Source of the DNA: Methylacidiphilum caldifontis
GTDB lineage: Bacteria; Verrucomicrobiota; Verrucomicrobiia; Methylacidiphilales; CAMAQI01
Direction: 5' to 3'
Assembly (NCBI GenBank): GCA_945860255.1
Contig: CAMAQI010000002.1
Coordinates: forward strand, 1 to 39,666
Length of the DNA stretch: 39,666 nt
The notes under the pieces: generated by a model
Told to the model about the DNA's origin: nothing
The model's database searches: none
The model's input: only the letters and a program-made list of their open reading frames with translations
Made by a program: the position numbers and the translations under genes
Shown here: positions 3,824 through 18,783 of the stretch, piece by piece
How positions within the stretch are numbered: the stretch's first letter is position 1
Layout of the letters: each line of letters begins with the position of its first letter

Positions 3824-5548
3824 TTACTTCCGTGGTGTTGCACGGCTCGCCACTTTAAAAATTAAATCAAGTACCTCAACCACTTCTGGGTCAATTTCTT
3901 TGAGAGGAATGAAATCGGTCAAACCGTGGTAATCGCGCTTGAAAATTTGCTGAGGCGTCCCCAACCGTTCATAGTAAGTCGAGAAAAGGGGATCTAAAAA
4001 ATCGTCCGTCACTTTGATGTCGGATCCCCATGGATCCGGTCTCTTTGCGATTTTCAACGCATTCACCAACTCGTCGATCCATTGTTCCATGATCGAACGA
4101 CGTGTTTTTCGCTCCGCATCGTCCACCAGATCCCCTTCGATCAAACCTTGCTCAATTAAAGCAAGAATACTTGCCTTTGAGGTAATGTAGTTCTCTATTT
4201 CCCGTTTTCTCCACATTTTTTCGACAAGGACTGGATTTTTATCGAGTTCCTTTTTAAGCCTGTCAAAGATCGCCACTCCGACCAAATCCGACTTTGCCTC
4301 CTTTAATCCCCAAAAATGATCGCGGGCACCCTGAGGTTGATTATTCCCCAGATAAATAGCGGGTGTTCCCTCGCTGAGATAAATTTTGGACGGATGATTC
4401 AACCTATCTGCGAAACGACGCAAAATGGCGAGATCCGTCGACCCCTCCAGATAAATCATCCAGCCCTTTTGCTCGGCAAGGTAATAATCCGACATTCGAA
4501 TGGATTCCAAAGACTTCCTGACCTGGTTTCTTGAGCGAACGTCGATGCGATGGGGTTTCCCAATAAAAGCCACCACCACATCCCTGTCCGCCGCCTCCTG
4601 TAAAACAACCTCCGAGTGACTCGCTGCAATAATCTGGGAATTTTGTTTTTCCGCCAGCCCAGTTAAAAGATTGTAAACATCCCGTTGTCTTAAAATTTCC
4701 AAATGCGCATCCGGCTCATCCAATAAGATAATGGATTGAGGATTGGATAAAACTGCGCATAAAATCAACAACACCTGCTGAAAACCCCTCCCACTTGCTG
4801 AAATATCGAGTACTGCTCCTGATTTTTCCCCATAAGAAAGGGTGATCAAGGACCGTTCCTTGATATAAATAGGATCGTTGAGTTGAACTCCAAAAAGCTC
4901 CGCAACCTTTTCCCGAAGTAATTTCCACCCTTCACCCTGTTCCTTTGAATAGAGAAGCCAACAAAGATTTCTCAAAACTTCAGCCGTCCTTCCCTCCCCA
5001 ATATGAAAATTGATCTCTCCAAGCTCTTTTCGGAATTCTTGTCCCGCCAAACCCGACATGGACGGAATAAATACGATTTGCTGTTGTCTTGCCCCCTCGG
5101 GGACACGCAATCCGGAATCCTCATTCAATCGACAATAAAATGATTCTTCATTCGCATAATAAAAATCCATTGAACAGAGCCACGGTTTATCCTGATGAAC
5201 CCCCTCCGCGACCAACTGGATCAAAACTTTTTCAGTGGTTTGTTTCCCTTCATTTATTTTGTTGTCTTGCGTACGCAGTTCGCTCCATAAAAGTTTTGCA
5301 CTCGGGACAGGAACTGTATTTAAATCCTTTCGGTTGATGGTGACGCCAGATCGCTCGCTCGCCTTGCTTGAATCCCTCTTTTCAACCCATTTTCTCCATC
5401 CAAGATCCCAAAGCGTCAATGCCTGAAGTGCCGAAGTTTTTCCCGAATTGTTTGGCCCAATGAATACGACTGCGTTTCCAAGATCCAATGTAGCAGATTC
5501 CAATTTTTTAAAATTTTTGATGGTGAATTTTGTGATCATTTTAGACAC
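3824..5548 (-). CDS. ABC/SMC-type ATPase fused to a Toprim/DUF4435-like C-terminal domain (OLD / GajA / fused PARIS-like)
   Basis: Walker A GPNNSGKT, signature-like SGRGFQQ, Walker B ILLDEPDAHLE, H-loop SHSE. The C-terminal ~210 aa carry YLEGSTD, AIFDRL and KREIENY motifs. Confidence 0.6.
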   Translation of the reverse strand: MSKMITKFTIKNFKKLESATLDLGNAVVFIGPNNSGKTSALQALTLWDLGWRKWVEKRDSSKASERSGVTINRKDLNTVPVPSAKLLWSELRTQDNKINEGKQTTEKVLIQLVAEGVHQDKPWLCSMDFYYANEESFYCRLNEDSGLRVPEGARQQQIVFIPSMSGLAGQEFRKELGEINFHIGEGRTAEVLRNLCWLLYSKEQGEGWKLLREKVAELFGVQLNDPIYIKERSLITLSYGEKSGAVLDISASGRGFQQVLLILCAVLSNPQSIILLDEPDAHLEILRQRDVYNLLTGLAEKQNSQIIAASHSEVVLQEAADRDVVVAFIGKPHRIDVRSRNQVRKSLESIRMSDYYLAEQKGWMIYLEGSTDLAILRRFADRLNHPSKIYLSEGTPAIYLGNNQPQGARDHFWGLKEAKSDLVGVAIFDRLKKELDKNPVLVEKMWRKREIENYITSKASILALIEQGLIEGDLVDDAERKTRRSIMEQWIDELVNALKIAKRPDPWGSDIKVTDDFLDPLFSTYYERLGTPQQIFKRDYHGLTDFIPLKEIDPEVVEVLDLIFKVASRATPRK

Positions 5549-5642
5549 TCCATTTTTTCATTGCATACGCCTAATATCTGATGCGCTTATGTAAACTTTG
5601 TCCAATATATTTCAATTTTTTTGAAATCGAGATGTACCATGT

Positions 5643-8297
5643 TTAATACGCACTCTGCATTCCCCCCACTGCTTTGGCGAGATCGCTCAGCGATTGATCG
5701 TCGGGAAGCACCACCGTGAACCGACATCGCCCTTCCGCATCGGTCTCCAAGCAATTCCGAAATCCCTTTAATACAGCTTCCTCAATCTCTGAATTCAACC
5801 CTTCACGCTGAGGAATGACTTTGCTGATAAATTTAAAGACGGAGGCCAGCATCTCACCCCCCGCTTTCTGGACTTCCTCTTTGTTAACCTCAGAACCAAT
5901 CACTGGGGTCTCAAGTGTTGGTGTCGGTTTTTGCCCGATCAACACTTCCAAACGACGTTTGAGCTCTTCCATCCCACTGGAAAGTGTGACCTCCTTGACT
6001 TCGGACCCAAAATCCAAAGCAGCCATCGAGAGTTCCTTTTTCGCTCCTAGGGTGGCAAGCAGATTCTCTTCGAGGGTCCTCTCGGTCACAAGAATGAAAA
6101 CCTCAACCGTGTTCTTTTGCCCCATCCGATGCGCACGAGCGATACGTTGCTCGAGCACGGCCGGATTCCAAGGGAGATCGACATTGACCACGGTGTTCGC
6201 CGACTGGAGATTCAACCCCGTCGATCCAGCATTGGTGGTCAGAAAAAGTCGGCACCCTGGATCTTCCTGAAATTCTTTGACCAGACCTTTCCGTTTCTTC
6301 TGCGGAACACTTCCATCCAAACGCACAAAACGGAGTTTTCGTTTTACGAGAAGGGGCTCAATGAGATTGAGCATCGTCGTCCATTCGGAGAAGAGTACTA
6401 TTTTACGCCCGCTCTCGTCGACGAACCGGTCAAAGAGTTCCTCCAGTTTTTTAAGTTTCGTCGAATGTCCTGGTGCGTCCTTAATCACCAGTTCCGTGCT
6501 GTCGGCGACCATGCGGCACATCATCAACTCCTTTTGAAGCTGGATGAGATCCATCTCTGTCAAAAACCGTTTTTTGATGATCGAACTTACTTTTCTCATA
6601 TGCCCGATATGTTGCATCTCCTGCTCTTCCGAGGGAGGAATCCGGACGATCTGTGTGACCCTCGGAGGCATCTCCTTCAATACCAGATCACGCGTGCGGC
6701 GAAGAAGGATCGGTTTTAACTGACGGCGAAGGTGATCGAGTTCCTTGTATCCGAGAATCTTCCCTTTCTCGTCGGCCACACGGTGCCTGTGAAAAAACCG
6801 AAATGCGGGTCCCAGCAAACGCTCGTCCACAAATTCAACAACGGAGTAGAGATCGTCCAAACGATTTTCCAATGGCGTTCCGCTCAAAACTAGAGCGTAT
6901 TTTGATTTCAATTTTTTGATCGTTGCGGAGGTTTTCGCTTCCCAGTTTTTGATCCGTTGCCCCTCGTCCAGAATGATGAGATCCCATTTCACTGGCTCGA
7001 TCGCGACCAAATCGCGCAAAACCTGTTCGTAGTTGCAGATCGTGTAAAAAACAGGCTTTGCATATTGACTGTGACGATCCATCAAACTTCCCGTGATCGC
7101 CTGGGAATCCCGATCACAAAACCGCCGGATCTCCGACTCCCATTGGGACTTCAGCGAAGTCGGACAAATCACCAATACTTTTTGGATTCCGATTTCTTGT
7201 GCGAGGAGTTCTGCGACACCGATCCCTTGAATGGTTTTGCCCAACCCCATTTCGTCGGCCAAAATCGATCGCCCCGCCCCCACCGCAAACCCGATGCCAT
7301 CCATCTGGTATGGGAGAAGGGTCGTTTTCAGGAGTTTCTCCCGAAGCGGATGCTTTGCGGGATTCTGTCGAATCTCCAAACTCAATTGTTGGAGTCGCTC
7401 TTTCCGCAAAATCTTTTCGACATACTCCTCAGCATCGGGATAAATCACCACCTGCTCCCCGGATTTTTCCAATTTCCGGATCGTCCCCAATAGCGATCTC
7501 ACCTCTTCCGCATTCGGATCAACCTGCCTGAAGGGTCTCACTCTTGTCGAGGAATCTTGGTCGGAGGGAAAACTGAGCGAGAGCTCGGTCTCTTTTCCAT
7601 AGCGGAGATGAAGCGTGTAATGTTTGCGTTGATGCGGCTTTGCCAAAACTTTTTTCGAAAATGCATCCTTCACAAAATTTTCAACCCGCATCAAATGCTT
7701 GCAGGTTCCCAAAGTATTTTTTCGAAAATCAGGACAGGTGCAAAATGAGGTTCCCATTTCCAATCCACGGAGAGCGACTCGATATGTTTTTCCAGATTCC
7801 TGACTAAATACATCATAATCCGTCCATGGTCTTTTCTCCTCTTTCGAGGTCACTGTCATCTTCTCTTTCAAAGCCCGTTCACGACGCTCCACAAGCATCC
7901 GTCTTTCCAACTGCTTCTCGTCCAACAGCTCCATGGGGATTTTATCCTCCGGATCCTTCGCTAGGCCGAGCGGTGTCTTTTGATCCAGCAAATAGGTCAA
8001 CGCCGCTCCCGCCTCGGGGATACACTTTTTCCCTTCGGAGCTTCCCCACTTTAATCCAAGTTTGGACCCGAGGTCCTCCTCCAACCAGAACTCGTAATGG
8101 CGAGGGATAAAAAATGAGACCGTAAAACGCTTATCCGTGAGACGAACATCAGAAGGATCGATCTCAAATTTTCCCCCTTCTGCCATCGCTTTCCGGCCTT
8201 TGGAACCAAGCAATTTGCAAGATTGGATGTAATTCAATCGGGAAAGTCGGTCGAAAAAAGTGAGTTTTTTTGCGGAACGAGTAGCGTAGGGATTCAT
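5643..8297 (-). CDS. SNF2/RAD54-family SF2 helicase with N-terminal SWIM zinc finger
   Basis: SWIM CTCPDFRKNTLGTCKH. Helicase motifs LADEMGLGKT, DEGQRIKN, LSGTPLEN, TNAGSTGLNL, QRIARAHRMGQ. The first in-frame ATG is at 8297 (a TTG lies at 8336). Confidence 0.85.
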   Translation of the reverse strand: MNPYATRSAKKLTFFDRLSRLNYIQSCKLLGSKGRKAMAEGGKFEIDPSDVRLTDKRFTVSFFIPRHYEFWLEEDLGSKLGLKWGSSEGKKCIPEAGAALTYLLDQKTPLGLAKDPEDKIPMELLDEKQLERRMLVERRERALKEKMTVTSKEEKRPWTDYDVFSQESGKTYRVALRGLEMGTSFCTCPDFRKNTLGTCKHLMRVENFVKDAFSKKVLAKPHQRKHYTLHLRYGKETELSLSFPSDQDSSTRVRPFRQVDPNAEEVRSLLGTIRKLEKSGEQVVIYPDAEEYVEKILRKERLQQLSLEIRQNPAKHPLREKLLKTTLLPYQMDGIGFAVGAGRSILADEMGLGKTIQGIGVAELLAQEIGIQKVLVICPTSLKSQWESEIRRFCDRDSQAITGSLMDRHSQYAKPVFYTICNYEQVLRDLVAIEPVKWDLIILDEGQRIKNWEAKTSATIKKLKSKYALVLSGTPLENRLDDLYSVVEFVDERLLGPAFRFFHRHRVADEKGKILGYKELDHLRRQLKPILLRRTRDLVLKEMPPRVTQIVRIPPSEEQEMQHIGHMRKVSSIIKKRFLTEMDLIQLQKELMMCRMVADSTELVIKDAPGHSTKLKKLEELFDRFVDESGRKIVLFSEWTTMLNLIEPLLVKRKLRFVRLDGSVPQKKRKGLVKEFQEDPGCRLFLTTNAGSTGLNLQSANTVVNVDLPWNPAVLEQRIARAHRMGQKNTVEVFILVTERTLEENLLATLGAKKELSMAALDFGSEVKEVTLSSGMEELKRRLEVLIGQKPTPTLETPVIGSEVNKEEVQKAGGEMLASVFKFISKVIPQREGLNSEIEEAVLKGFRNCLETDAEGRCRFTVVLPDDQSLSDLAKAVGGMQSAY

Positions 8298-8391
8298 GTT
8301 TTGAGGATGAATCCATGTAGAACCTCCGCAAGCCAAAAACTCGCCTTTTTATTCACTTGTGTTCAGATATTTAAATGTCTGAAATTCTTCT

Positions 8392-8991
8392 ATGTCTGAT
8401 AACACCCCTTCTTCCTCAAGCGATCAAGATCCCAATCGATCTGATTTTTCGCCGATTTTTGACGACTTTGTCCGCCCGCTTCTCGACTATGATTCTTGGA
8501 AGAACTCTGAGATGAAAGATGTCATGCGGATCGGCATCTATCTCTGGAATAGCAACCGTCTATCGCCCGAGGCGTATTCCGAACTTCAATCCTTTCTCTT
8601 TCAATCCATCGATCAGGAGCTGCGGATTCTTTTTCAAGGAATGATCGGCTCGAGAACCGGTTTTTTCAAAACTCATTCCGTCTCCATTGAGGATGGAAAA
8701 GTCATGGTCTCCAAAAAATTTTACAACCTCGAATTGAAATTCGGGGACTATCCTCCCGAAATCCTTTTCCCTGAATATATCTGCGAAGCGATGATGGCTG
8801 ATTTTGTCAGAAGTCTTGATGAGTTAGGATTGATAGAACGTCAAATATATGTTCAATTTATGACCCGCTATCAATCAAGGCTCGAGCGCCTTATTGCAAA
8901 AAATGAAAAGCGAATAGCAGAAAACGAAGCGAAAATAGCAGAAGCAAAAACGGCGCTTAAAGATTTTCCCCAAACAATCGAATGTAAGTGA
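8392..8991 (+). CDS. Hypothetical protein with C-terminal coiled coil
   Basis: 199-aa ORF divergent from the SNF2 gene. Has a KNEKRIAENEAKIAEAK tail. No family recognised. Confidence 0.4.
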   Translation: MSDNTPSSSSDQDPNRSDFSPIFDDFVRPLLDYDSWKNSEMKDVMRIGIYLWNSNRLSPEAYSELQSFLFQSIDQELRILFQGMIGSRTGFFKTHSVSIEDGKVMVSKKFYNLELKFGDYPPEILFPEYICEAMMADFVRSLDELGLIERQIYVQFMTRYQSRLERLIAKNEKRIAENEAKIAEAKTALKDFPQTIECK

Positions 8992-9013
8992 CATCGCCAT
9001 TGGCGATAGGCCA

Positions 9014-9163
9014 TCAAACCTTTTCGCGAAGCGAGTCCTCTTCACGGATTTGCTTCATTGCGGCTTTACGTTCACGTTTGGCGACCTTGCGTTTATTAAA
9101 TGGTCGCAAATGTTTCCACCATTCGGGCGGCGATGTTAGAGTATCTTTTCGAGTATGAGCCAT
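9014..9163 (-). CDS. Possible small basic protein (49 aa)
   Basis: MAHTRKDTLTSPPEWWKHLRPFNKRKVAKRERK... preceded on the minus strand by TTGTCA, 17 nt, TATGTT, 10 nt, ATG. Support is weak. Confidence 0.25.
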   Translation of the reverse strand: MAHTRKDTLTSPPEWWKHLRPFNKRKVAKRERKAAMKQIREEDSLREKV

Positions 9164-9334
9164 ACTTGTGACAAACATATATGAAAGTGAAGAAATTGAC
9201 AAGATCACCAGACAAAACTAGGTTGAATTCATGAAAGTCGTCAATGTTCAAGAGGCAAAGATCACTCACGATCAAAACTTGAACCTTATGGCGCAATCAT
9301 CCTTTGGACTTAATTTTTTTCTTTAAGTTTGATT

Positions 9335-10612
9335 TTAAAAAGATCGTGCAGCCCCCATTAAAAATTTGCGCACGTTTTGCCAGCCCACTCCTTCATGATC
9401 CTCGCGGAAATGGGTGTCTAGGCTGAGAAGCATCCGGGGGTATTCATCACCTATCGCCCGCAGAGACCTCAACTCCCTCTCCAGAGTAGATTTTTCTCCC
9501 AGCAGATAGGCCACTTGAATATAGATCCGCCGCCCCTCACGTGATGCCACAAAATCAATTTCGTTCTCCCCCCATCTTCCAACTTCAACCGAATATCCAT
9601 TCGCTTTCAAGTGAAGATAAACGACCGCTTCCAGTTGAATGCCGATATCCTGATCCCGAAATCCAAGAATGGCGTTTCGGATCCCCGCATCCGCTGCATA
9701 ATATTTTTCATGCGTTTCCAGAATTTTTCGTCCCCGAAGATCATGCCGTCGAACCCGGTGCAGCACCCGTGCATCCTCAAAATATTGAAGATATTCCAAA
9801 ATGGTGTCGACGCTCGTTTTGATTTGCTGCGAGCGTAAGTAGTCCGAGATTCGTTTGGAAGAAACCGGAGACCCCGATGTATCCAAAACATATCGAAGCA
9901 CATTTTCAAGCAATCGAACATTACGGATCGCATGGCGGCTGACCACATCCTTAAGAACCACCGTGTTGCCAATCGCCGAGAGATAATCAAACACCGCCAC
10001 ATCTTCGCGTGAAAGCGCGTGAATTCCAGGCATGCCCCCGTGGCGTAAAAATCGTGCGAAGGCCTCCTCCCCCTCCTTTTCCCCAGAAAACTCGAGAAAC
10101 TCAGGATAAGTCAAAGGGTGAACCGGAATCTCAATATAGCGACCCGTTAGCGCCGTTGCGAGCTCCCCCGAAAAAACTTTTGCATTGGACCCTGTCAAAT
10201 AAACATCGACTTCCCCTTCCTTCAGTAGCGAAGCCACCGCACGCTCCCATCCCTGAATTTCCTGAACCTCATCGACCATCAGAACCTTTTTTCCCTTGGC
10301 TTTGGAAAAGCGTTGCTTGGCCTCCCGATGTAGATCCACTCCTGTTCTGATGGAGTCCCACTCCATCTTCTCTTTGTCGACCTCCAGCAATGTCATCCCC
10401 GGATAAGCTTTCTTGAGCTCCGTAGCCCAAAGTCGTAGAAGAGTGCTCTTCCCGACACGGCGCATCCCGGTCAATATCTTGATCAGCGGCTTGAAAGCAA
10501 ACTGCCCTAACACGGGCCTATAACGATTTCGATTATGCACGAAAAAGATAATATCATGCAAATTTATTCGTGTATAGTCGAAATATCTTAAATGGAATTC
10601 CCGATAGCGCAT
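9335..10612 (-). CDS. AAA+ ATPase with DUF4143-type C-terminal domain
   Basis: GMRRVGKSTLL Walker A and LMVDEVQEIQGWERAV Walker B region. The C-terminal region is typical of the archaeal-ATPase/DUF4143 family. Confidence 0.75.
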   Translation of the reverse strand: MRYREFHLRYFDYTRINLHDIIFFVHNRNRYRPVLGQFAFKPLIKILTGMRRVGKSTLLRLWATELKKAYPGMTLLEVDKEKMEWDSIRTGVDLHREAKQRFSKAKGKKVLMVDEVQEIQGWERAVASLLKEGEVDVYLTGSNAKVFSGELATALTGRYIEIPVHPLTYPEFLEFSGEKEGEEAFARFLRHGGMPGIHALSREDVAVFDYLSAIGNTVVLKDVVSRHAIRNVRLLENVLRYVLDTSGSPVSSKRISDYLRSQQIKTSVDTILEYLQYFEDARVLHRVRRHDLRGRKILETHEKYYAADAGIRNAILGFRDQDIGIQLEAVVYLHLKANGYSVEVGRWGENEIDFVASREGRRIYIQVAYLLGEKSTLERELRSLRAIGDEYPRMLLSLDTHFREDHEGVGWQNVRKFLMGAARSF

Positions 10613-10675
10613 TTATCCACCATCGGATTGAAATACATCTCTCTTCCATGATCTCCTACTTTGTCAACTGATTCT

Positions 10676-10698
10676 AGGGACAAAAGACATCATGACAC
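10676..10698. repeat. Left copy of a perfect 23-bp inverted repeat (agggacaaaagacatcatgacac)
   Basis: Exact reverse complement of 13897-13919. Confidence 0.95.
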
Positions 10699-10718
10699 GG
10701 GGCCCCTTCCGGGGCCCC
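10699..10718 (-). terminator. GC-rich hairpin downstream of the 640-aa ORF
   Basis: ggggcccc-ttcc-ggggcccc, 15 nt past the stop codon. There is no clear U-tract on the minus strand. Confidence 0.4.
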
Positions 10719-10733
10719 TTCTAGATTGTTTCA

Positions 10734-12656
10734 TTATTTTTCACTAGTACTTGATTTTCTTCTTTTTGAATCTACGAAACACTGGGCGTACTTTTTAGCC
10801 TCGTCACAAAGATCTTGATAACGCTTTAGCTGATCCCACTTTTCAATTAATGGACTTTTGTTTGGATTCTCATTCTTAAAAAAAATTGAAAATTTCTTTT
10901 TTTCCGGAGGTTTAAAAAAATGATGGAGATATTCTGTTTTCTGAACGGTCTCTTGATACTTTTCATCTGACTTCATCTTCATCATAGCGGATCTCTTTTG
11001 AGATAAAGCAGATCGACTTGGTACCTTATAGTGGATTTGACTCCACCAATGGGGAATGTTTTGGGGTTCCATTTTTTTGAGAGTCGCCAATCCTTTTTCG
11101 GCAAAACGAAGATACGCTTCCACTTTTATAACCGCTTCATCCCAATCATATTCTCCAATGGGAGAAGGTGCTAAATGAGCTCGCAATATTTTTTTGTCCT
11201 CGTGATTTCTACCATAGGTCTTACACCACACCCCGGCGAGATCTATCGCCAATTGATCCAGTGATTCCAATGAATATTTGAATGCTCTTTGATCAACACC
11301 TTTAGAGTCATCTTTGTACTCGAGCAGCCAATTTTTATTCAAGCCCGCTAGTCGGATTTTTCTTTTACCCAGTTGTTCTAAGTCTGCCCAAAAATGTGCC
11401 GCTCTTTTCTTTTGTTCCACTGGAATATCTTGTTCTTTACACAGAAAATCGCCTTGCCACGTTTCTTGAATATATTTTTTCCAAAACGCTGAGGGGGTTT
11501 TAAACTCGGGCGGATAAGAGCATTTTTTATGGATAATCTCTCTAAAAACAGACCAAACTATTTTCTTCTCTTTAACTTCCAGTCTATCAATCGCATCAAA
11601 TAAATGGAGTCCACTTAAAGTTATCGCTTTGTCCATCGTTGGGAATTCTTCACGAATATTAAAGAGAAAATCGGAGGCCGATTCTTTTCGCTGCCACGAT
11701 TCCAAATCTAAATCCTTATTGGATGTTTCAAAAAGATAAGCGAGAAGTAAATCTCCGAGGAAAGCAGCTAAGCGATCTAGGGGCTTTAAATTCTCATTAT
11801 CTTGATGATCGAGATCAACATCATTTAAAAAATCCCTCCATTTTTCTACCTGATCATTTGATAAACTTCTTTTGATCGATTGATCTCTGGATATTTTGTT
11901 ACTTCTAAAGAGATCGCACTCCACAAGCTGGTTTTCACCGACAAGCTTCTTCCATTGCGTCAAATGATCATCATTGTTGAAAATATTTTTAAATACCGAA
12001 GCCGCTTTATTTTGAGGTTGAATGGCTTTTACGGGATTGAAATTGAACCATCGGCAAAGTCGTTGAGCCTCTTTTTTTTGTTCATCTTCATCTTTCCCAT
12101 CCAGTTCAATAAGACGAACAACAATCAATTTTTCATTCAACTTTTGGGTATCTAGATTTATGGTTGATTTTATCTTTTCCCATTCTTCCTTTAAATCCAT
12201 TAAAGTGAGTTCTCTTGATCCTCGTTCCGTCGACAAGAATTCCGCATATTCCTTGTAAGCTGTTTTATCTTCTTCCTTCTTCTTTAATGTTGAATTTTGA
12301 CTAACGAGAAGCAGTCGTCTGTTCCCACTCAGTGCCACCATTTTACCCTCAATCTCAGCAACAATGGGAGGGCCACTGCTTGCATCGGGATTGCTGTTCA
12401 CTAAAAAATGCGGTTTAAAATGCTCTACGATCGATCGATTGAGCTCGATTTCACCTTCCTTTTCGTACCAGCGGTCATTTTCAATCGGGAATTCAGGATT
12501 TCTTTCAATGGGATTTCCAGTCGTCGATAAGCTTTTTTCTAATTTGGTTGAGGCGCATATATCGCCTAAATTCATAAATTTGTAATTGTAACCAACTTTC
12601 TCAAATTCTCCTCCAGATGGCTTGCATATCAGGATTTTTGAATCGGTTTCATTCAT
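10734..12656 (-). CDS. Orphan 640-aa protein with N-terminal ParB/Srx-like domain
   Basis: NPIERNPEFP ... LNRSIVEHF ... PPIVAEIEGKMVALSGNRRLLLV matches the ParB N-terminal domain layout (GxRR box). The rest is Lys/Trp-rich and helical with no recognised family. The gene is markedly AT-rich relative to its neighbours. Confidence 0.5.
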   Translation of the reverse strand: MNETDSKILICKPSGGEFEKVGYNYKFMNLGDICASTKLEKSLSTTGNPIERNPEFPIENDRWYEKEGEIELNRSIVEHFKPHFLVNSNPDASSGPPIVAEIEGKMVALSGNRRLLLVSQNSTLKKKEEDKTAYKEYAEFLSTERGSRELTLMDLKEEWEKIKSTINLDTQKLNEKLIVVRLIELDGKDEDEQKKEAQRLCRWFNFNPVKAIQPQNKAASVFKNIFNNDDHLTQWKKLVGENQLVECDLFRSNKISRDQSIKRSLSNDQVEKWRDFLNDVDLDHQDNENLKPLDRLAAFLGDLLLAYLFETSNKDLDLESWQRKESASDFLFNIREEFPTMDKAITLSGLHLFDAIDRLEVKEKKIVWSVFREIIHKKCSYPPEFKTPSAFWKKYIQETWQGDFLCKEQDIPVEQKKRAAHFWADLEQLGKRKIRLAGLNKNWLLEYKDDSKGVDQRAFKYSLESLDQLAIDLAGVWCKTYGRNHEDKKILRAHLAPSPIGEYDWDEAVIKVEAYLRFAEKGLATLKKMEPQNIPHWWSQIHYKVPSRSALSQKRSAMMKMKSDEKYQETVQKTEYLHHFFKPPEKKKFSIFFKNENPNKSPLIEKWDQLKRYQDLCDEAKKYAQCFVDSKRRKSSTSEK

Positions 12657-12710
12657 ATTGTTTAGAGGAACTAGTTAAGAGAAATTAAATTAATAGTGGT
12701 TTTGCGTCAA
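12657..12710 (-). promoter_or_regulatory. Promoter plus bipartite repeat in the 25-nt leader of the 640-aa ORF
   Basis: Minus strand reads TTGACG (12705-12710), 17 nt, TAATTT (12682-12687), then tctcttaac-tagtt-cctctaaaca (12659-12682) ending 2 nt before the ATG. Confidence 0.45.
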
Positions 12711-12924
12711 GTTTTCTGCTCCGAAATATAAGCCCATGATGCCCTCGTATATTAATAACATGAGAGAAAATCACTATCAATTCTACCGTCCAACCTCTTT
12801 TAACGCATGATATGTGGATTTGTATTCCATCAAGAAAAGACACGTAGTCTATCCGTAAGCAAAATTGCGTAATCTCTAATCAAGGAGGCAAGTTAACAAA
12901 GTATCTCCGTAATAAAGGAATCCT

Positions 12925-13167
12925 ATGCACAAACGAACTAATTATTCTCTAAACAATATTTCTCTAAACATTCAGCTCGAATTTCAATTCATCAATGAAT
13001 TCTTTGATAACTCAATCCCAGAAATTCCCTATCTACAAATAAGTAAGAATAAGCCTACTCCTGAGAGCGAAAGAATTGAAGCAATTCGTGGTGCTAATGA
13101 AGATAGCGCTGATGCCGAATGGGAAATTTACCTAGAAAACCTATCACCTCCTGATGAGGATTATTGA
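12925..13167 (+). CDS. Small acidic protein (80 aa), paralog 1
   Basis: SD-like aagga 5 nt before the ATG. The N-terminus YSLNNISLNIQLEF is shared with the 13551 ORF. Confidence 0.4.
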   Translation: MHKRTNYSLNNISLNIQLEFQFINEFFDNSIPEIPYLQISKNKPTPESERIEAIRGANEDSADAEWEIYLENLSPPDEDY

Positions 13168-13550
13168 TAAGTCACTTATAACAAAGAGTTTAAACAATTC
13201 CACTGTTTTGTAGAACCGTTTTAAGCCCAATAAAATCCACAGTAATTACCCTCGTATATTATAAGTATGAGCAAAAAATACCTCCATATCCTTAGATTAT
13301 TAAAATATTCTTATATATACCTTTACAACAGGTACTTACGAACAATTTATTTCTATTTCGAACATGTAAAAAGCTATAATAATTTACGATTGAAATTTTT
13401 TTATCCTTTTTTGGCAACTCAGTCAATTTCCTTAATTTTTCCTGTAATACTTATTGATATGAACAAAAACGTTATCAATCAACATTTGCGTAATCTTATA
13501 CCAGTGAGACATCTCATCACCATTGGTATCTAAAAGAAAAAAGGAATAAT

Positions 13551-13829
13551 ATGATCAATATAAAAATTAAAGTATATTCTCTTAACTCATTTCCTCTTAA
13601 CATTCAGATGGATTTATTCAGTGATGATCCTCTAATAGTGACTACTCCAATTGTTAGAAAAAAATCACAAAAAAAACGATATAATAACAGAAAAGAGCAA
13701 TTGTACGCAAATCCTGACGAGTATTTCGTGAGCGATCTATTGCGAGAAGGCCACATTAAATGTCCTCGTCTTGAAAGGTTCTTGTCTGCTAAAATTCAAT
13801 CTCTAAGACAATCCAAAAAGATTTCGTAA
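13551..13829 (+). CDS. Small basic protein (92 aa), paralog 2
   Basis: Same SD spacing as paralog 1. The N-terminus YSLNSFPLNIQMDLF is shared with the 12925 ORF. Confidence 0.4.
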   Translation: MINIKIKVYSLNSFPLNIQMDLFSDDPLIVTTPIVRKKSQKKRYNNRKEQLYANPDEYFVSDLLREGHIKCPRLERFLSAKIQSLRQSKKIS

Positions 13830-13896
13830 TTGTTTGAATAAGTTTAAACACTCTTTTAACTTATTCAATGTCACAACTTTTATCGTAAAAGGCGCT

Positions 13897-13919
13897 GTGT
13901 CATGATGTCTTTTGTCCCT
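13897..13919. repeat. Right copy of the perfect 23-bp inverted repeat
   Basis: gtgtcatgatgtcttttgtccct is the exact reverse complement of 10676-10698. Confidence 0.95.
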
Positions 13920-14007
13920 GCCAGCCCATTCCTTTAATAATCAATCTTTTATTAAAGAAACTTGCTATTTTCTTTAATAAGAATATTCTTATTAAAGGGT
14001 TTATCGT

Positions 14008-15168
14008 ATGATTCGATCTGAAACAGGTAATTACAGCATTTCCACTTTAGGGGGAGAGACCGTAAAAGCATTTATTCCTTTATCGCTTCCTCCTGTCCCT
14101 CCCTTGGATCTGACGGGATCTCGCCAAAGGCTACTCGAACGCGCGACGATTGCCGTCGGACGACTCGACAGTGTCGCCACATTGTTACCTGATCCGGATC
14201 TTTTTCTTTATGCGTATGTTCGTCGGGAAGCGGTTCTCTCCTCACAAATTGAAGGAACCCAATCCTCCCTGTCGGATCTTTTACTTTTTGAAATCGATGA
14301 AGTACCTGGGGTTCCTTTTGATGATGTGGTTGAAGTCTCCAATTACATCGCTGCGTTAAACCACGGGATGAATCGCCTCAAAGAAGGTTTTCCCTTGAGT
14401 ACCCGTCTTCTTCGAGAGATGCATGCTCAACTCATGTCCAGGGGTCGTGGAAGTGATAAGAATCCCGGGGAGTTTCGTCGAAGCCAAAATTGGATCGGTG
14501 GCACAAGACCGGGTAATGCACACTTTGTTCCCCCTCCACCCCATGAAGTTGATCGATGTATGGGCGATCTTGAAAAATTTCTTCATGATGATCACTCCAC
14601 TCCACTCCTCCTCAAAGCGGCTCTTGCCCATGTTCAATTTGAAACCATCCATCCCTTCCTCGATGGGAATGGACGATTGGGACGGCTCTTGATTGCTTTG
14701 CTTCTTCATGAAGGAGGCCTTCTTTCTCTTCCACTTCTTTATTTAAGTCTTTATCTCAAAAAGCATCGGAATATTTATTACGAAAAACTGGACATCGTCC
14801 GCACTCAAGGGGATTGGGAAAGCTGGTTAGATTTCTTTCTCGAAGGGGTTGAAGAAACTGCATTGGGAGCGGTTGAAACTGTTCGACGTTTGGGAGCACT
14901 TTTTGAAAAGGATCGAAAACAGGTGCAAGAAACCAAACGTCTTGCATCCAACATCCTTCGCGTCTTTCACGAATTTGAAAAACGCCCCATATTGAATTTA
15001 AAACAGATCTGCCGTGATCATCGAATGACTTTTCCAACAGCCACAAAAGCGGTTTCATCCCTCATCGAAATGGGAATCATCCGAGAAATGACCGGTCAAA
15101 AACGAAATCGATTTTTCGTTTATGATGCTTATCTCAAAATTCTGAATGAAGGGGGAGATCCTTTGTAA
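14008..15168 (+). CDS. Fic-family protein (AMPylase-type) with N-terminal inhibitory motif and C-terminal wHTH-like region
   Basis: Catalytic HPFLDGNGRLGRLL (HPFx[D/E]GNGRxxR). SSQIEG matches the (S/T)xxxE(G/N) autoinhibition motif. Confidence 0.9.
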   Translation: MIRSETGNYSISTLGGETVKAFIPLSLPPVPPLDLTGSRQRLLERATIAVGRLDSVATLLPDPDLFLYAYVRREAVLSSQIEGTQSSLSDLLLFEIDEVPGVPFDDVVEVSNYIAALNHGMNRLKEGFPLSTRLLREMHAQLMSRGRGSDKNPGEFRRSQNWIGGTRPGNAHFVPPPPHEVDRCMGDLEKFLHDDHSTPLLLKAALAHVQFETIHPFLDGNGRLGRLLIALLLHEGGLLSLPLLYLSLYLKKHRNIYYEKLDIVRTQGDWESWLDFFLEGVEETALGAVETVRRLGALFEKDRKQVQETKRLASNILRVFHEFEKRPILNLKQICRDHRMTFPTATKAVSSLIEMGIIREMTGQKRNRFFVYDAYLKILNEGGDPL

Positions 15169-15169
15169 A

Positions 15170-16264
15170 CTACGCCGTGCGCATCGGCATGATCACGTAC
15201 AGGAAGGGCTTGCTGTACTTGATGACGCCGGGGCTGAGTTCGTCGATGAAGTCGAAGAAGATTTCGTCGGAGTCAATGTGTCTCAAGGGATCTTGTAAAT
15301 AGGTCGGATTGAAGGCGATGGAGAATTCTTTCCCTTTATAATTCACAGGGATCGATTCTTTGGCCTCTCCGACTTCGGGGGTGTTGGACATGATGTCCAA
15401 ATTGTTTTGGCTGAAACTCAAGCGAATCGAATTTGTTTTATCGTTCGATAACAAGGAGACACGACGGGTGGCATTAAGGAGCAATTCGCGCTCGATGATG
15501 ATTCGATCCTTGGCCTCGGGGGGAATGACTTGTTTGTAGTTCGGATATTTTCCTTCGACGAGTTTCGAGACGAGGAAGGTCTCACCAAGATCAAAAGCGA
15601 TCTGATTGTCTGAGAGCGAAATAGTTAACGGTTCCTCTTGTCCCAAAATCCGTTGGAGTTCGTTGACCGCTTTTGTCGGAAGAATCGCATCGGTTTCATT
15701 TCCTTTGGCAAATTCCATCTCATGCTCAACAAGGGCGAGACGACGTCCATCGGTGGCGACCATCGTTAATTTGGTGTCATGGAAACTGAGGAATACACCG
15801 TTGAGAACGTAACGACTTTCGTCGTTGGAGATCGCATAAGCGGTCCGGCGAAGCATATCGCGGAAGGTCCCTTGGGTCATTTTGAACTGACGAGCGCCTT
15901 CGGTTTTTGGGAAGGCAGGAAAATCTTCTGCAGGAAGTCCAAGAATTTTGAAATAAGACGAAGCTGCTCGGATCGTCGCTTGATTCTCATCATTGACTTC
16001 AAGCGTGAGTTCGACTGCGGGAAGTTCACGGATGATACTAAAGAAACGTTTTGCTGGAAGTGTCGTTGTTCCGGGTTTAATGACTTCGCAAGGAATCGAG
16101 GCCCGAATTCCCATATCGAGATCGGTGGTCGAGATGGTCAGCTTGCCATTCTCTGCGACCAAGAGGGCATTTCCGAGGATGGGGAGGGTTGTGCGTGAGG
16201 CAACAACGTTTTGGACCATTTGTAGGCCTGCAATTAAAGCTTCTTTCCCAATGACACATTTCAT
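15170..16264 (-). CDS. dnaN: DNA polymerase III beta sliding clamp
   Basis: 364 aa. RTTLPILGNALLVAENGKLTISTTDLDMGI and the overall three-domain length are typical. Confidence 0.95.
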   Translation of the reverse strand: MKCVIGKEALIAGLQMVQNVVASRTTLPILGNALLVAENGKLTISTTDLDMGIRASIPCEVIKPGTTTLPAKRFFSIIRELPAVELTLEVNDENQATIRAASSYFKILGLPAEDFPAFPKTEGARQFKMTQGTFRDMLRRTAYAISNDESRYVLNGVFLSFHDTKLTMVATDGRRLALVEHEMEFAKGNETDAILPTKAVNELQRILGQEEPLTISLSDNQIAFDLGETFLVSKLVEGKYPNYKQVIPPEAKDRIIIERELLLNATRRVSLLSNDKTNSIRLSFSQNNLDIMSNTPEVGEAKESIPVNYKGKEFSIAFNPTYLQDPLRHIDSDEIFFDFIDELSPGVIKYSKPFLYVIMPMRTA

Positions 16265-17728: not shown

Positions 17729-17872
17729 TTAACCGCCGAGGGCGCAGAGTAACGCAGAGGAAAAACTCCTAAAACTCTCTGCAAGACTGGAATGCAGGAA
17801 AAAGAATGTTTTGGGTTTTAAAAACAAAAAATAAGAATTTACTCTGCGTATCTCTGCGCCCTCTGCGGTTAA
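17729..17872. repeat. 144-bp palindromic TTAACC element (A2), MITE-like
   Basis: ttaaccgccgagggcgcagagtaacgcagagg ... actctgcgtatctctgcgccctctgcggttaa. Each arm has three cgcagag heptads. Confidence 0.85.
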
Positions 17873-18616: not shown

Positions 18617-18628
18617 GAGTAAGACAGT

Positions 18629-18783
18629 TTAACCGCAGAGGAAATCCCTTTTTTAGTTTTTAAAACCCAAAACATTTTTTTTCCTGGATTCCAGCCTTCC
18701 TGAGAGTTTTAGGAGTTTTTCCTCTGCGTTACTTCTTGTCCGCCGTAGTCATTCGACGGAGGAGGATGCCTCCTCTGCGGTTA
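18629..18783. repeat. 155-bp TTAACC element (A3), inverted copy of A2
   Basis: The ~85-nt core gtttttaaaacccaaaacatt...gagagttttaggagtttttcctctgcgttac matches the reverse complement of A2 with few mismatches. Termini are ttaaccgcagagg / cctctgcggttaa. Confidence 0.85.

Follow-up and report, generated by a model that had tools for sequence, protein, structure and literature searches.

The DNA analyzed here is a 39,666-nt stretch of a Methylacidiphilum caldifontis contig (CAMAQI010000002.1), referred to as the window, and the subject is a 3,244-bp cassette within it (10676–13919) that has a G+C content of 36%, compared with 45% in the rest of the window. Three genes of the cassette, one encoding a protein of 640 amino acids (aa) and two small open reading frames (ORFs) of 80 and 92 aa, each carry a copy of the same bipartite direct-repeat motif at or near the 5′-end, and this motif is probably a shared control site of the three genes. 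The reading that we prefer, to which we give a probability of roughly 40%, is that the motif is a cassette-specific DNA operator by which the three genes are co-regulated. The broader statement, that the motif functions in some way as a nucleic-acid element, we regard as very likely.

A paired motif at three cassette genes

When both strands of the window were searched with the pattern TCTCTWAACN{4,7}YCTCTWAACA (W, A or T; Y, C or T), exactly three matches of 24 to 25 nt each were found, and there were none in 100 dinucleotide-preserving shuffles of the window. The 8-nt core of the half-site, CTCTWAAC, occurs seven times in the window against an expectation of 1.9, and six of the seven occurrences make up the three motif pairs, all of which fall within the cassette. 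With the half-site TCTCTWAACA and at most one mismatch, eight of 14 window matches lie inside the insert, a segment that makes up 8% of the window; the number falls to 0.8 in shuffles that keep the composition of the insert.

Site 1 (12659–12682, minus strand) reads TCTCTTAAC-TAGTT-CCTCTAAACA and is noncoding, occupying positions −26 to −3 relative to the start codon of the 640-aa ORF (10734–12656, minus strand) and ending 2 nt 5′ of its ATG. Site 2 (12946–12970, plus strand) reads TCTCTAAAC-AATATT-TCTCTAAACA and spans codons 8 to 16 of the 80-aa ORF (12925–13167, plus strand), at +22 to +46, and site 3 (13578–13602, plus strand) reads TCTCTTAAC-TCATTT-CCTCTTAACA and spans codons 10 to 18 of the 92-aa ORF (13551–13829, plus strand), at +28 to +52. 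Each copy reads in the sense orientation of its own gene. The preliminary description of this DNA had placed three copies at these positions, with half-sites about 15 bp apart and with the small-ORF copies about 20 to 27 nt into their ORFs, and the pattern scan confirms the placement: the half-sites are spaced by 14 nt at site 1 and by 15 nt at the other two, which start 21 and 27 nt 3′ of the A in their respective ATGs. The peptides given there as (S/P)LN..(S/P)LNIQ are likewise found in the translations, which read YSLNNISLNIQ and YSLNSFPLNIQ. The accompanying statement that the motif marks all three genes of the insert holds for the 640-, 80-, and 92-aa genes, but gene predictors also call a fourth ORF of 88 aa (13267–13533, plus strand), Tyr/Leu-rich, that has no motif; this is a doubtful gene, because its counterpart in the first of the two duplicated small-ORF modules described below has only 16 codons.

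Evidence for constraint at the nucleotide level

One explanation for the two coding copies lies in the peptide, with YSLN..LNIQ being an N-terminal docking or β-strand peptide that might, for example, bind the 640-aa protein, and with the noncoding copy being a coincidence or a remnant. The motif is indeed in frame in both small ORFs, with a 15-nt (5-codon) period and with the W positions falling at synonymous third positions of Leu codons, and a low-confidence model of the 92-aa protein places the segment in a predicted β-hairpin. The codons speak against this explanation, however. Apart from Leu, the two ORFs have six residues in common here, and these are encoded by identical, mostly rare codons (AAC, CAG, and TCT account for 21%, 22%, and 16% of their families in the 640-aa gene), an identity that has a P of ~5e-4 under peptide-only constraint, and the Ser/Pro difference at Y within the half-sites is nonsynonymous. 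Nor, from the shuffle control above, is an exact third copy in a noncoding leader expected by chance. At site 1 the S-L-N frame runs into the in-frame stops TAG and TAA, and the half-site spacing is 1 nt below that of the coding sites. A peptide-level origin of the motif is, in our estimation, very unlikely.

The variable positions W and Y coincide between the coding and noncoding copies, and the similarity of site 1 to sites 2 and 3 ends at the motif, with flank alignments giving p values of 0.27 to 0.93 in a shuffle test. A longer paralogy of the three 5′-regions, hinted at by a MAFFT alignment, was rejected by the same test. The remainder of the small-ORF modules has diverged to a few short islands, and retention of the motif in that setting therefore implies selection. 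The noncoding copy, the rare codons, the dissimilar flanks, and the matching W and Y positions support selection on the motif as DNA or RNA and not as peptide only, and they bear out the corresponding claim of the preliminary description.

The small genes and the probable duplication of their modules

Both small ORFs begin with the Shine-Dalgarno (SD) sequence AAGGA 5 nt 5′ of the ATG, and the SD spacing is the same in the two (AAGGA-N5-ATG), as had been noted before. The 80-aa protein has an acidic C-terminal half and the 92-aa protein is basic, and the two are unrelated to each other outside residues 7 to 20. No homolog of either was found by protein search, Pfam, PHROG, or NCBIfam, and Pfam gave no ribbon-helix-helix (RHH), helix-turn-helix (HTH), or AbrB match in them. 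The single-sequence structure model of the 92-aa protein was too poor to use (pLDDT 49).

A tandem duplication of the small-ORF module had also been proposed, and it finds modest support: the modules have seven exact matches of at least 9 nt in common against 2.5 expected (p ~0.02; p ~0.007 for the summed length), and there are four collinear matches, CCCTCGTATATTA, TTGCGTAATCT, AACATTCAG, and AGTTTAAACA, at offsets of 507, 621, 632, and 654. In both modules the order is CCCTCGTATATTA, TTGCGTAATCT, AAGGA-N5-ATG, the motif with AACATTCAG, and AGTTTAAACA past the stop codon, with nothing else in common. The first island, CCCTCGTATATTA-N5-ATG, lies at 12742–12762 in module 1 and at 13249–13269 in module 2 (all islands are on the plus strand); the distance from TATATT to ATGAG within it is 6 nt in both modules, and these TATATT-N6-ATG islands are possible promoters or start regions. 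The second lies at 12865–12875, where it is followed by the one-mismatch half-site TCTCTAATCA (12873–12882), and at 13486–13496. The last, AGTTTAAACA, which is half-site-like (TYTWAACA), lies 3′ of the 80-aa stop codon at 13187–13196, and in module 2 it is contained, at 13841–13850, in an AT-rich hairpin (13834–13868, plus strand) that follows the 92-aa ORF and has 15-nt arms of 93% complementarity. This arrangement fits an old tandem duplication of the small-ORF units. A further sequence, CTCTTTTAAC, resembles a half-site with two extra T residues and occurs at 12795–12804, 5′ of the 80-aa ORF, and at 13851–13860, in the hairpin after the 92-aa ORF; the offset of this pair, 1056, is out of register with the module duplication.

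With a duplication in the cassette, the three motif copies could also be relics of a duplicated 5′-segment, either not yet decayed or kept alike by gene conversion, and have no regulatory role. The small-ORF modules have the appearance of diverged tandem duplicates, as such an explanation would have it, and the cassette is known as a single lineage with copies that are 100% identical in four metagenomes, which provides no direct measure of selection. The surroundings of the motif have diverged beyond recognition, however, and the remainders of the two proteins are unrelated; a neutral 25-nt island with 76 to 84% identity in three places is therefore unlikely. In addition, the tandem duplication does not include site 1, which lies on the other strand and has unrelated flanks. 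We consider a relic of this kind to be improbable.

A candidate DNA operator

In the DNA operator model, the two tandem half-sites of 9 to 10 bp would each be bound by one of two subunits of a sequence-specific protein. Site 1 overlaps the predicted −10/+1 region of the 640-aa gene, and a protein bound there would cover the start site and the leader of about 20 nt, thereby occluding the promoter, while at sites 2 and 3, which lie early in the transcribed part of the small genes, it might act as a roadblock or by looping. All three transcription units would thereby be shut down or co-ordinated together when the sites are occupied. The binder would most likely be encoded by the cassette, the first candidate being the basic 92-aa protein and the second the C-terminal 500 residues of the 640-aa protein, and, by analogy with toxin-antitoxin and conflict cassettes, repression of this type may serve to restrain a potentially harmful effector.

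The operator model draws on the position of site 1, which is directly next to the one promoter that is plausible for the 640-aa gene. This candidate σ70-like promoter (12682–12710, minus strand) would consist of TTGACG (12710–12705), a 17-nt spacer, and TAATTT (12687–12682), the last base of which is the first base of site 1. The −10 box that the preliminary description had put directly before the motif does adjoin it, but it belongs to a weak promoter candidate that matches the consensus at 8 of 12 positions, below the threshold of the promoter scan and absent from its list. The leader that would result contains no SD sequence, and the motif takes its place. The predicted RNA structure of each of the three 5′-regions is weaker than in shuffles (z +1.0 to +1.7), and a riboswitch-like, hairpin, or SD-sequestering element is therefore not indicated. 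The location of the cassette, between a PDC-S01 gene and a SoFic gene in a region rich in toxin-antitoxin systems, also agrees with the model, since self-regulated conflict cassettes are the norm in such settings.

Several observations weigh against a DNA operator. A DNA-binding domain was detected in no cassette protein by Pfam, NCBIfam, PHROG, or PDB sequence searches, and cooperative dimers do not usually have half-sites ~1.4 helical turns apart, as the direct-repeat spacing of 14 to 15 bp would require. The sites in the small genes are intragenic, and promoters at the putative TATATT-N6-ATG starts would leave them ~190 and ~310 nt downstream, a poor geometry for an operator; promoters at the TTGCGTAATCT islands would leave them ~80 to 90 nt downstream. 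The weakness of the promoter at site 1 counts here as well, and the sense orientation near start codons at all three sites is equally explained by a site in RNA. Comparative support is lacking too, as the locus of the sole homolog of the 640-aa protein (26% identity) has no such motif.

The motif could have a promoter function of its own on the opposite strand, where TGTTWAGAG gives −35-like hexamers (TTWAGA) at 16 to 18 nt from AT-rich −10-like hexamers, so that each site would drive an antisense RNA over the ribosome-binding region in the style of a type I toxin-antitoxin system. The promoter scan does list TTAAGA-18-TATACT and TTAAGA-17-TATATT opposite site 3 and TTTAGA-16-AATAAT opposite site 2, but the nine promoter-like matches in the region are at or below the shuffle expectation of 11.2, and there is no comparable −10 hexamer opposite site 1. 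Antisense promoters would also leave the duplicated half-site in the spacer unexplained, and the terminator scan found no terminators for such RNAs. We regard this possibility as highly improbable.

A possible site in RNA

The main rival to the DNA operator is an RNA-level element, in which the motif would be an unstructured, pyrimidine-rich tandem site at the mRNA 5′-ends, bound by a cassette- or host-encoded RNA-binding protein and acting on translation initiation, mRNA stability, or transcription elongation. All copies are in the sense orientation and no more than 52 nt from the start codon, the one at the 640-aa gene stands where the leader would have its SD sequence, and the 5′-regions are predicted to be unstructured and so would be accessible; a difference between 14- and 15-nt spacing, moreover, is one that RNA easily tolerates. 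Sites 2 and 3, however, lie just beyond the usual 30S footprint and would be crossed by ribosomes, the Pfam search revealed no RNA-binding domain among the cassette proteins, and no Rfam family matches.

The RNA-level explanation includes a BoxA-like form, in which NusB/NusE-type factors would load early onto AT-rich foreign transcripts and resist or promote Rho termination. The sequence CUCUUAACA resembles the rrn BoxA GCUCUUUAACA and the λ BoxA GCUCUUA, and both suhB and a ParE-like toxin gene are regulated by a BoxA close to the start codon (PMC5725501). GYTCTTTAANA, a consensus that is γ-proteobacterial and may not be that of the host, is not matched by any of the six half-sites, however: they have U or C where the consensus has G, and their U run lacks one base or contains an A. 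In the case of BoxA5, a G-to-U exchange raises the NusB:NusE dissociation constant from 90 nM to 5.2 µM (~60-fold weaker binding) and abolishes function in Escherichia coli (PMC2800207), and by E. coli criteria the cassette sites do not belong to the BoxA class. Taken as a whole, with its BoxA-like form included, the RNA-level explanation appears to us to be on the unlikely side.

A DdrB-like ParB domain in the 640-aa protein

The product of the 640-aa gene had been described as ParB-like, and this proves correct for an N-terminal domain that is detected by profile comparison but not by direct matches to family databases. Pfam, NCBIfam, PHROG, PADLOC, and PDB sequence searches gave no match to the protein (none at E≤1 in a direct hmmscan), and a word-indexed protein search returned only the protein itself, as did a search with a profile of the protein and its homolog P0003. 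That homolog (661 aa, 26% identity over 317 residues) is the one real relative found by an exhaustive HMMER search of 1.84 billion representatives; the further weak matches of that search, at residues ~14 to 176, all carry PF18763 (ddrB-like ParB), and PF18763 proteins make up seven of its nine non-self matches. When the 640-aa protein and P0003 were compared with seven PF18763 domains by hhalign, the probability was 99.0% (E 5.5e-18) over residues 25 to 145, and NPDASSGPP and SGNRR aligned with the family's NPDAVNGPP and GGNSR, which are the lineage and arginine motifs of DdrB-like ParB. By these sequence comparisons residues ~25 to 145 are assigned to the DdrB-like ParB domain (PF18763, ParB/Srx superfamily), a clade of predicted DNase or NTP-binding ParB/Srx domains in phage and prophage proteins that is typified by DdrB of phage P1 (Iyer et al. 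2017, PMC5512222).

The remaining ~500 residues are predicted to be helical and have no detectable family, no HTH family was found in the protein by Pfam, NCBIfam, or PDB sequence search, and the single-sequence structure model is unusable (pLDDT 35). A variant contig from one riverine run has seven listed differences in the 640-aa gene, five of them at third codon positions, which suggests a real coding gene under purifying selection. The locus of P0003, L005, is mobile-element-like, with σ70-like genes, a faint TrwB match, and an RHH gene, and it has no motif enrichment, no small-ORF pair, and no comparable architecture. At positions 5109–5137 of L005, TCTCTGAATAAGAAGTTTAAC ends 5 nt before the P0003 ATG, and the distance from the start of its TCTCT to the ATG, 26 nt, is that of site 1. 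The sequence TCTCTGAA...TTTAAC at this locus was considered as a relative of the motif, but only 13 of 26 positions match, a level that may be due to chance, and it was rejected as evidence.

Cassette boundaries and genomic setting

The cassette is bounded by a perfect 23-bp terminal inverted repeat, AGGGACAAAAGACATCATGACAC, with the left copy at 10676–10698 (plus strand) and its reverse complement at 13897–13919, and a weaker similarity extends out to 36 nt. The window contains no copy besides these two, against an expectation of 0, and they lie at the exact ends of the cassette. Terminal inverted repeats are a feature of insertion sequences and transposons, but of the other features of such elements none was found: there is no target-site duplication in the flanks (...GATTCT/GCCAGC...), cores of the repeat have no further copies in viral or JGI metagenome contigs, and no transposase or recombinase family is present in the cassette or among the gene calls of the window. 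The repeats may be transposon ends, inversion sites, or recombination scars. Just inside the left repeat and 3′ of the stop codon of the 640-aa gene is a GC hairpin (10699–10718, minus strand; GGGGCCCC-TTCC-GGGGCCCC), which is terminator-like without a T run and was read in the sequence, not in the terminator scan. The 94-nt stretch 10612–10705, which comprises the start codon of the neighboring ATPase gene and its upstream region, the left inverted repeat, and GGGGCCC, is present twice in a 1,382-nt contig of one riverine run, once identically and once with 13 differences, the two starts being 185 nt apart; the flanks of that contig are unrelated to the window, and the left-repeat region thus occurs in another context too.

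The genes that flank the cassette encode an AAA_14/DUF4143 ATPase (PDC-S01 in PADLOC) and a Fic protein (SoFic in PADLOC), and farther out are genes for an SNF2 helicase and an AAA_15 ATPase, several ParE/Phd, PIN, and PemK pairs, dnaN, and gidA. The segments 3824–10612 and 14008–15168 are of a defense type, with an AAA_15/SMC-like ATPase, the SNF2 helicase (with a faint SWIM match), a 199-aa ORF of no family, the PDC-S01 ATPase, and SoFic, and there are at least six toxin-antitoxin pairs elsewhere in the window. From these neighbors, the cassette sits in a chromosomal island rich in defense-type and toxin-antitoxin genes. Between the cassette and the SoFic-like Fic gene, directly 5′ of the latter, are two tandem AT-rich palindromic units of 29 to 30 nt (13929–13998; CTTTAATAA...TTATTAAAG), which are probably an operator of the Fic gene itself; several short-read contigs end within them. 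A miniature inverted-repeat transposable element (MITE)-like element occurs as inverted copies at 17730–17872 and 18625–18780, ~90% identical over 100 nt and with terminal repeats of its own (TTAACCGC.GAGG...); the pair flanks a PemK-type toxin-antitoxin pair and thereby forms a second inverted-repeat-framed cassette in the window. At ~14800–15200 the GC skew flips from negative to positive beside dnaN, with gidA 20 kb away, and gene orientation switches there as well, and the window probably spans the replication origin region. An oriC/DnaA-box reading of the AT-rich region was rejected, with E. coli-type DnaA boxes neither enriched nor clustered.

Searches for relatives of the cassette

Contigs from four lake and river metagenomes carry the insert with 100% identity, and all contigs that have identical flanking proteins and reach the cassette position contain the cassette. 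No empty site was found; dnaN relatives (72–74% identity) have no neighboring genes in common with the window. The motif region was not found in a diverged form in any run searched, and none of the RNA sequencing runs searched contains the locus. Viral contigs lack a 22-nt core of the inverted repeat, and JGI metagenome contigs lack a 20-nt core. Scanning public collections for the motif gave single, chance-level matches, at 18 viral loci and more than 119 genome loci. Two loci with two matches were rejected as relatives, one (L024) being a tandem repeat inside an unrelated gene and the other (L059) having no similarity to the window. By these searches the cassette is an orphan of one sequence lineage, and the case for the motif rests on a single sequence; for a singleton element the finding is a lead, not a discovery.

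Comparison with known systems

A domain-level comparator is DdrB of phage P1 and the polyvalent proteins with PF18763 domains, with which the 640-aa protein shares the hhalign match and the NPDxxxGPP and GGNxR-type motifs. It differs in being chromosomal and in having a solo domain with a long helical tail of no assigned family, without an MPTase or other polyvalent partner domain and without a virion-gene context, and the Pfam model itself scores nothing. To our knowledge, nearly all DdrB-like ParB domains described so far come from polyvalent proteins of phages and plasmids, and if the shared operator is real, it would make the cassette a compact, self-contained regulon on one 3.2-kb piece and would provide a handle on how a DdrB-like ParB protein is restrained and what it does. 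A control site that lies inside two coding sequences and one leader would also be a natural test case for recognition at the DNA versus the RNA level.

The ParB-parS and KorB systems resemble the cassette in having a ParB/Srx-superfamily N-terminal domain, here with the arginine motif SGNRR, and several sites near the protein's own gene, and AAACA is the end of both the cassette half-site and the parS half-site GAAACA. The parS site is a roughly 16-bp palindrome (an inverted repeat), though, whereas the cassette motif is a direct repeat of 9–10-nt half-sites that are 14 to 15 nt apart and oriented with the genes. No ParA-type partner accompanies it, as the cassette encodes no ATPase and the neighboring one is of the AAA_14/DUF4143 type (PDC-S01) and not ParA; the DdrB-like clade is phage-borne and is not described as a centromere binder. 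With no HTH detected in addition, the earlier suggestion of parS-like sites is not upheld. Plasmid iterons consist of at least three tandem direct repeats of 17 to 22 bp with a period of ~22 bp beside a rep gene; the cassette has half-site pairs at three dispersed places, and no Rep family was found.

The BoxA sites of rrn operons, λ nut regions, and suhB-type leaders are similar in their sense CUCUU(U)AACA-like sequence early in the transcript and near start codons, and AT-rich foreign genes are typical Rho targets. A BoxA leader site would lie within ~50 nt of the start codon, as site 1 does, and sites 2 and 3 are sense but intragenic (beginning at +22 and +28); neither the intragenic position nor the tandem arrangement is a feature of known BoxA sites. 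It is conceivable, if quite doubtful, that we see here a conflict or defense module of three genes that has not been described before, made up of a DdrB-ParB effector and two unrelated small proteins and carrying a miniature regulon of its own, in which one leader and two ORFs share a coding-sequence-embedded RNA operator read on nascent transcripts or mRNAs.

Finally, the autoregulatory operators of toxin-antitoxin and other mobile conflict cassettes, at which a small protein of the cassette binds short repeated promoter sites, offer a comparison for the DNA operator that we prefer. They differ from the cassette motif in that the genes of the cassette are divergent and do not form an operon, the repeats are direct and not palindromic, and two of the three sites are intragenic; a type II toxin-antitoxin system would have a DNA-binding antitoxin co-transcribed with its toxin, and here the ORFs are divergent and no RHH, HTH, or AbrB family is matched. 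They are alike in that the effector gene has a short, cassette-specific, repeated site at its promoter or start, and in the small partner genes that stand beside a large gene for a predicted nuclease-like protein in an island rich in defense and toxin-antitoxin genes, and repeated operators in mobile conflict cassettes are of an ordinary, known kind.

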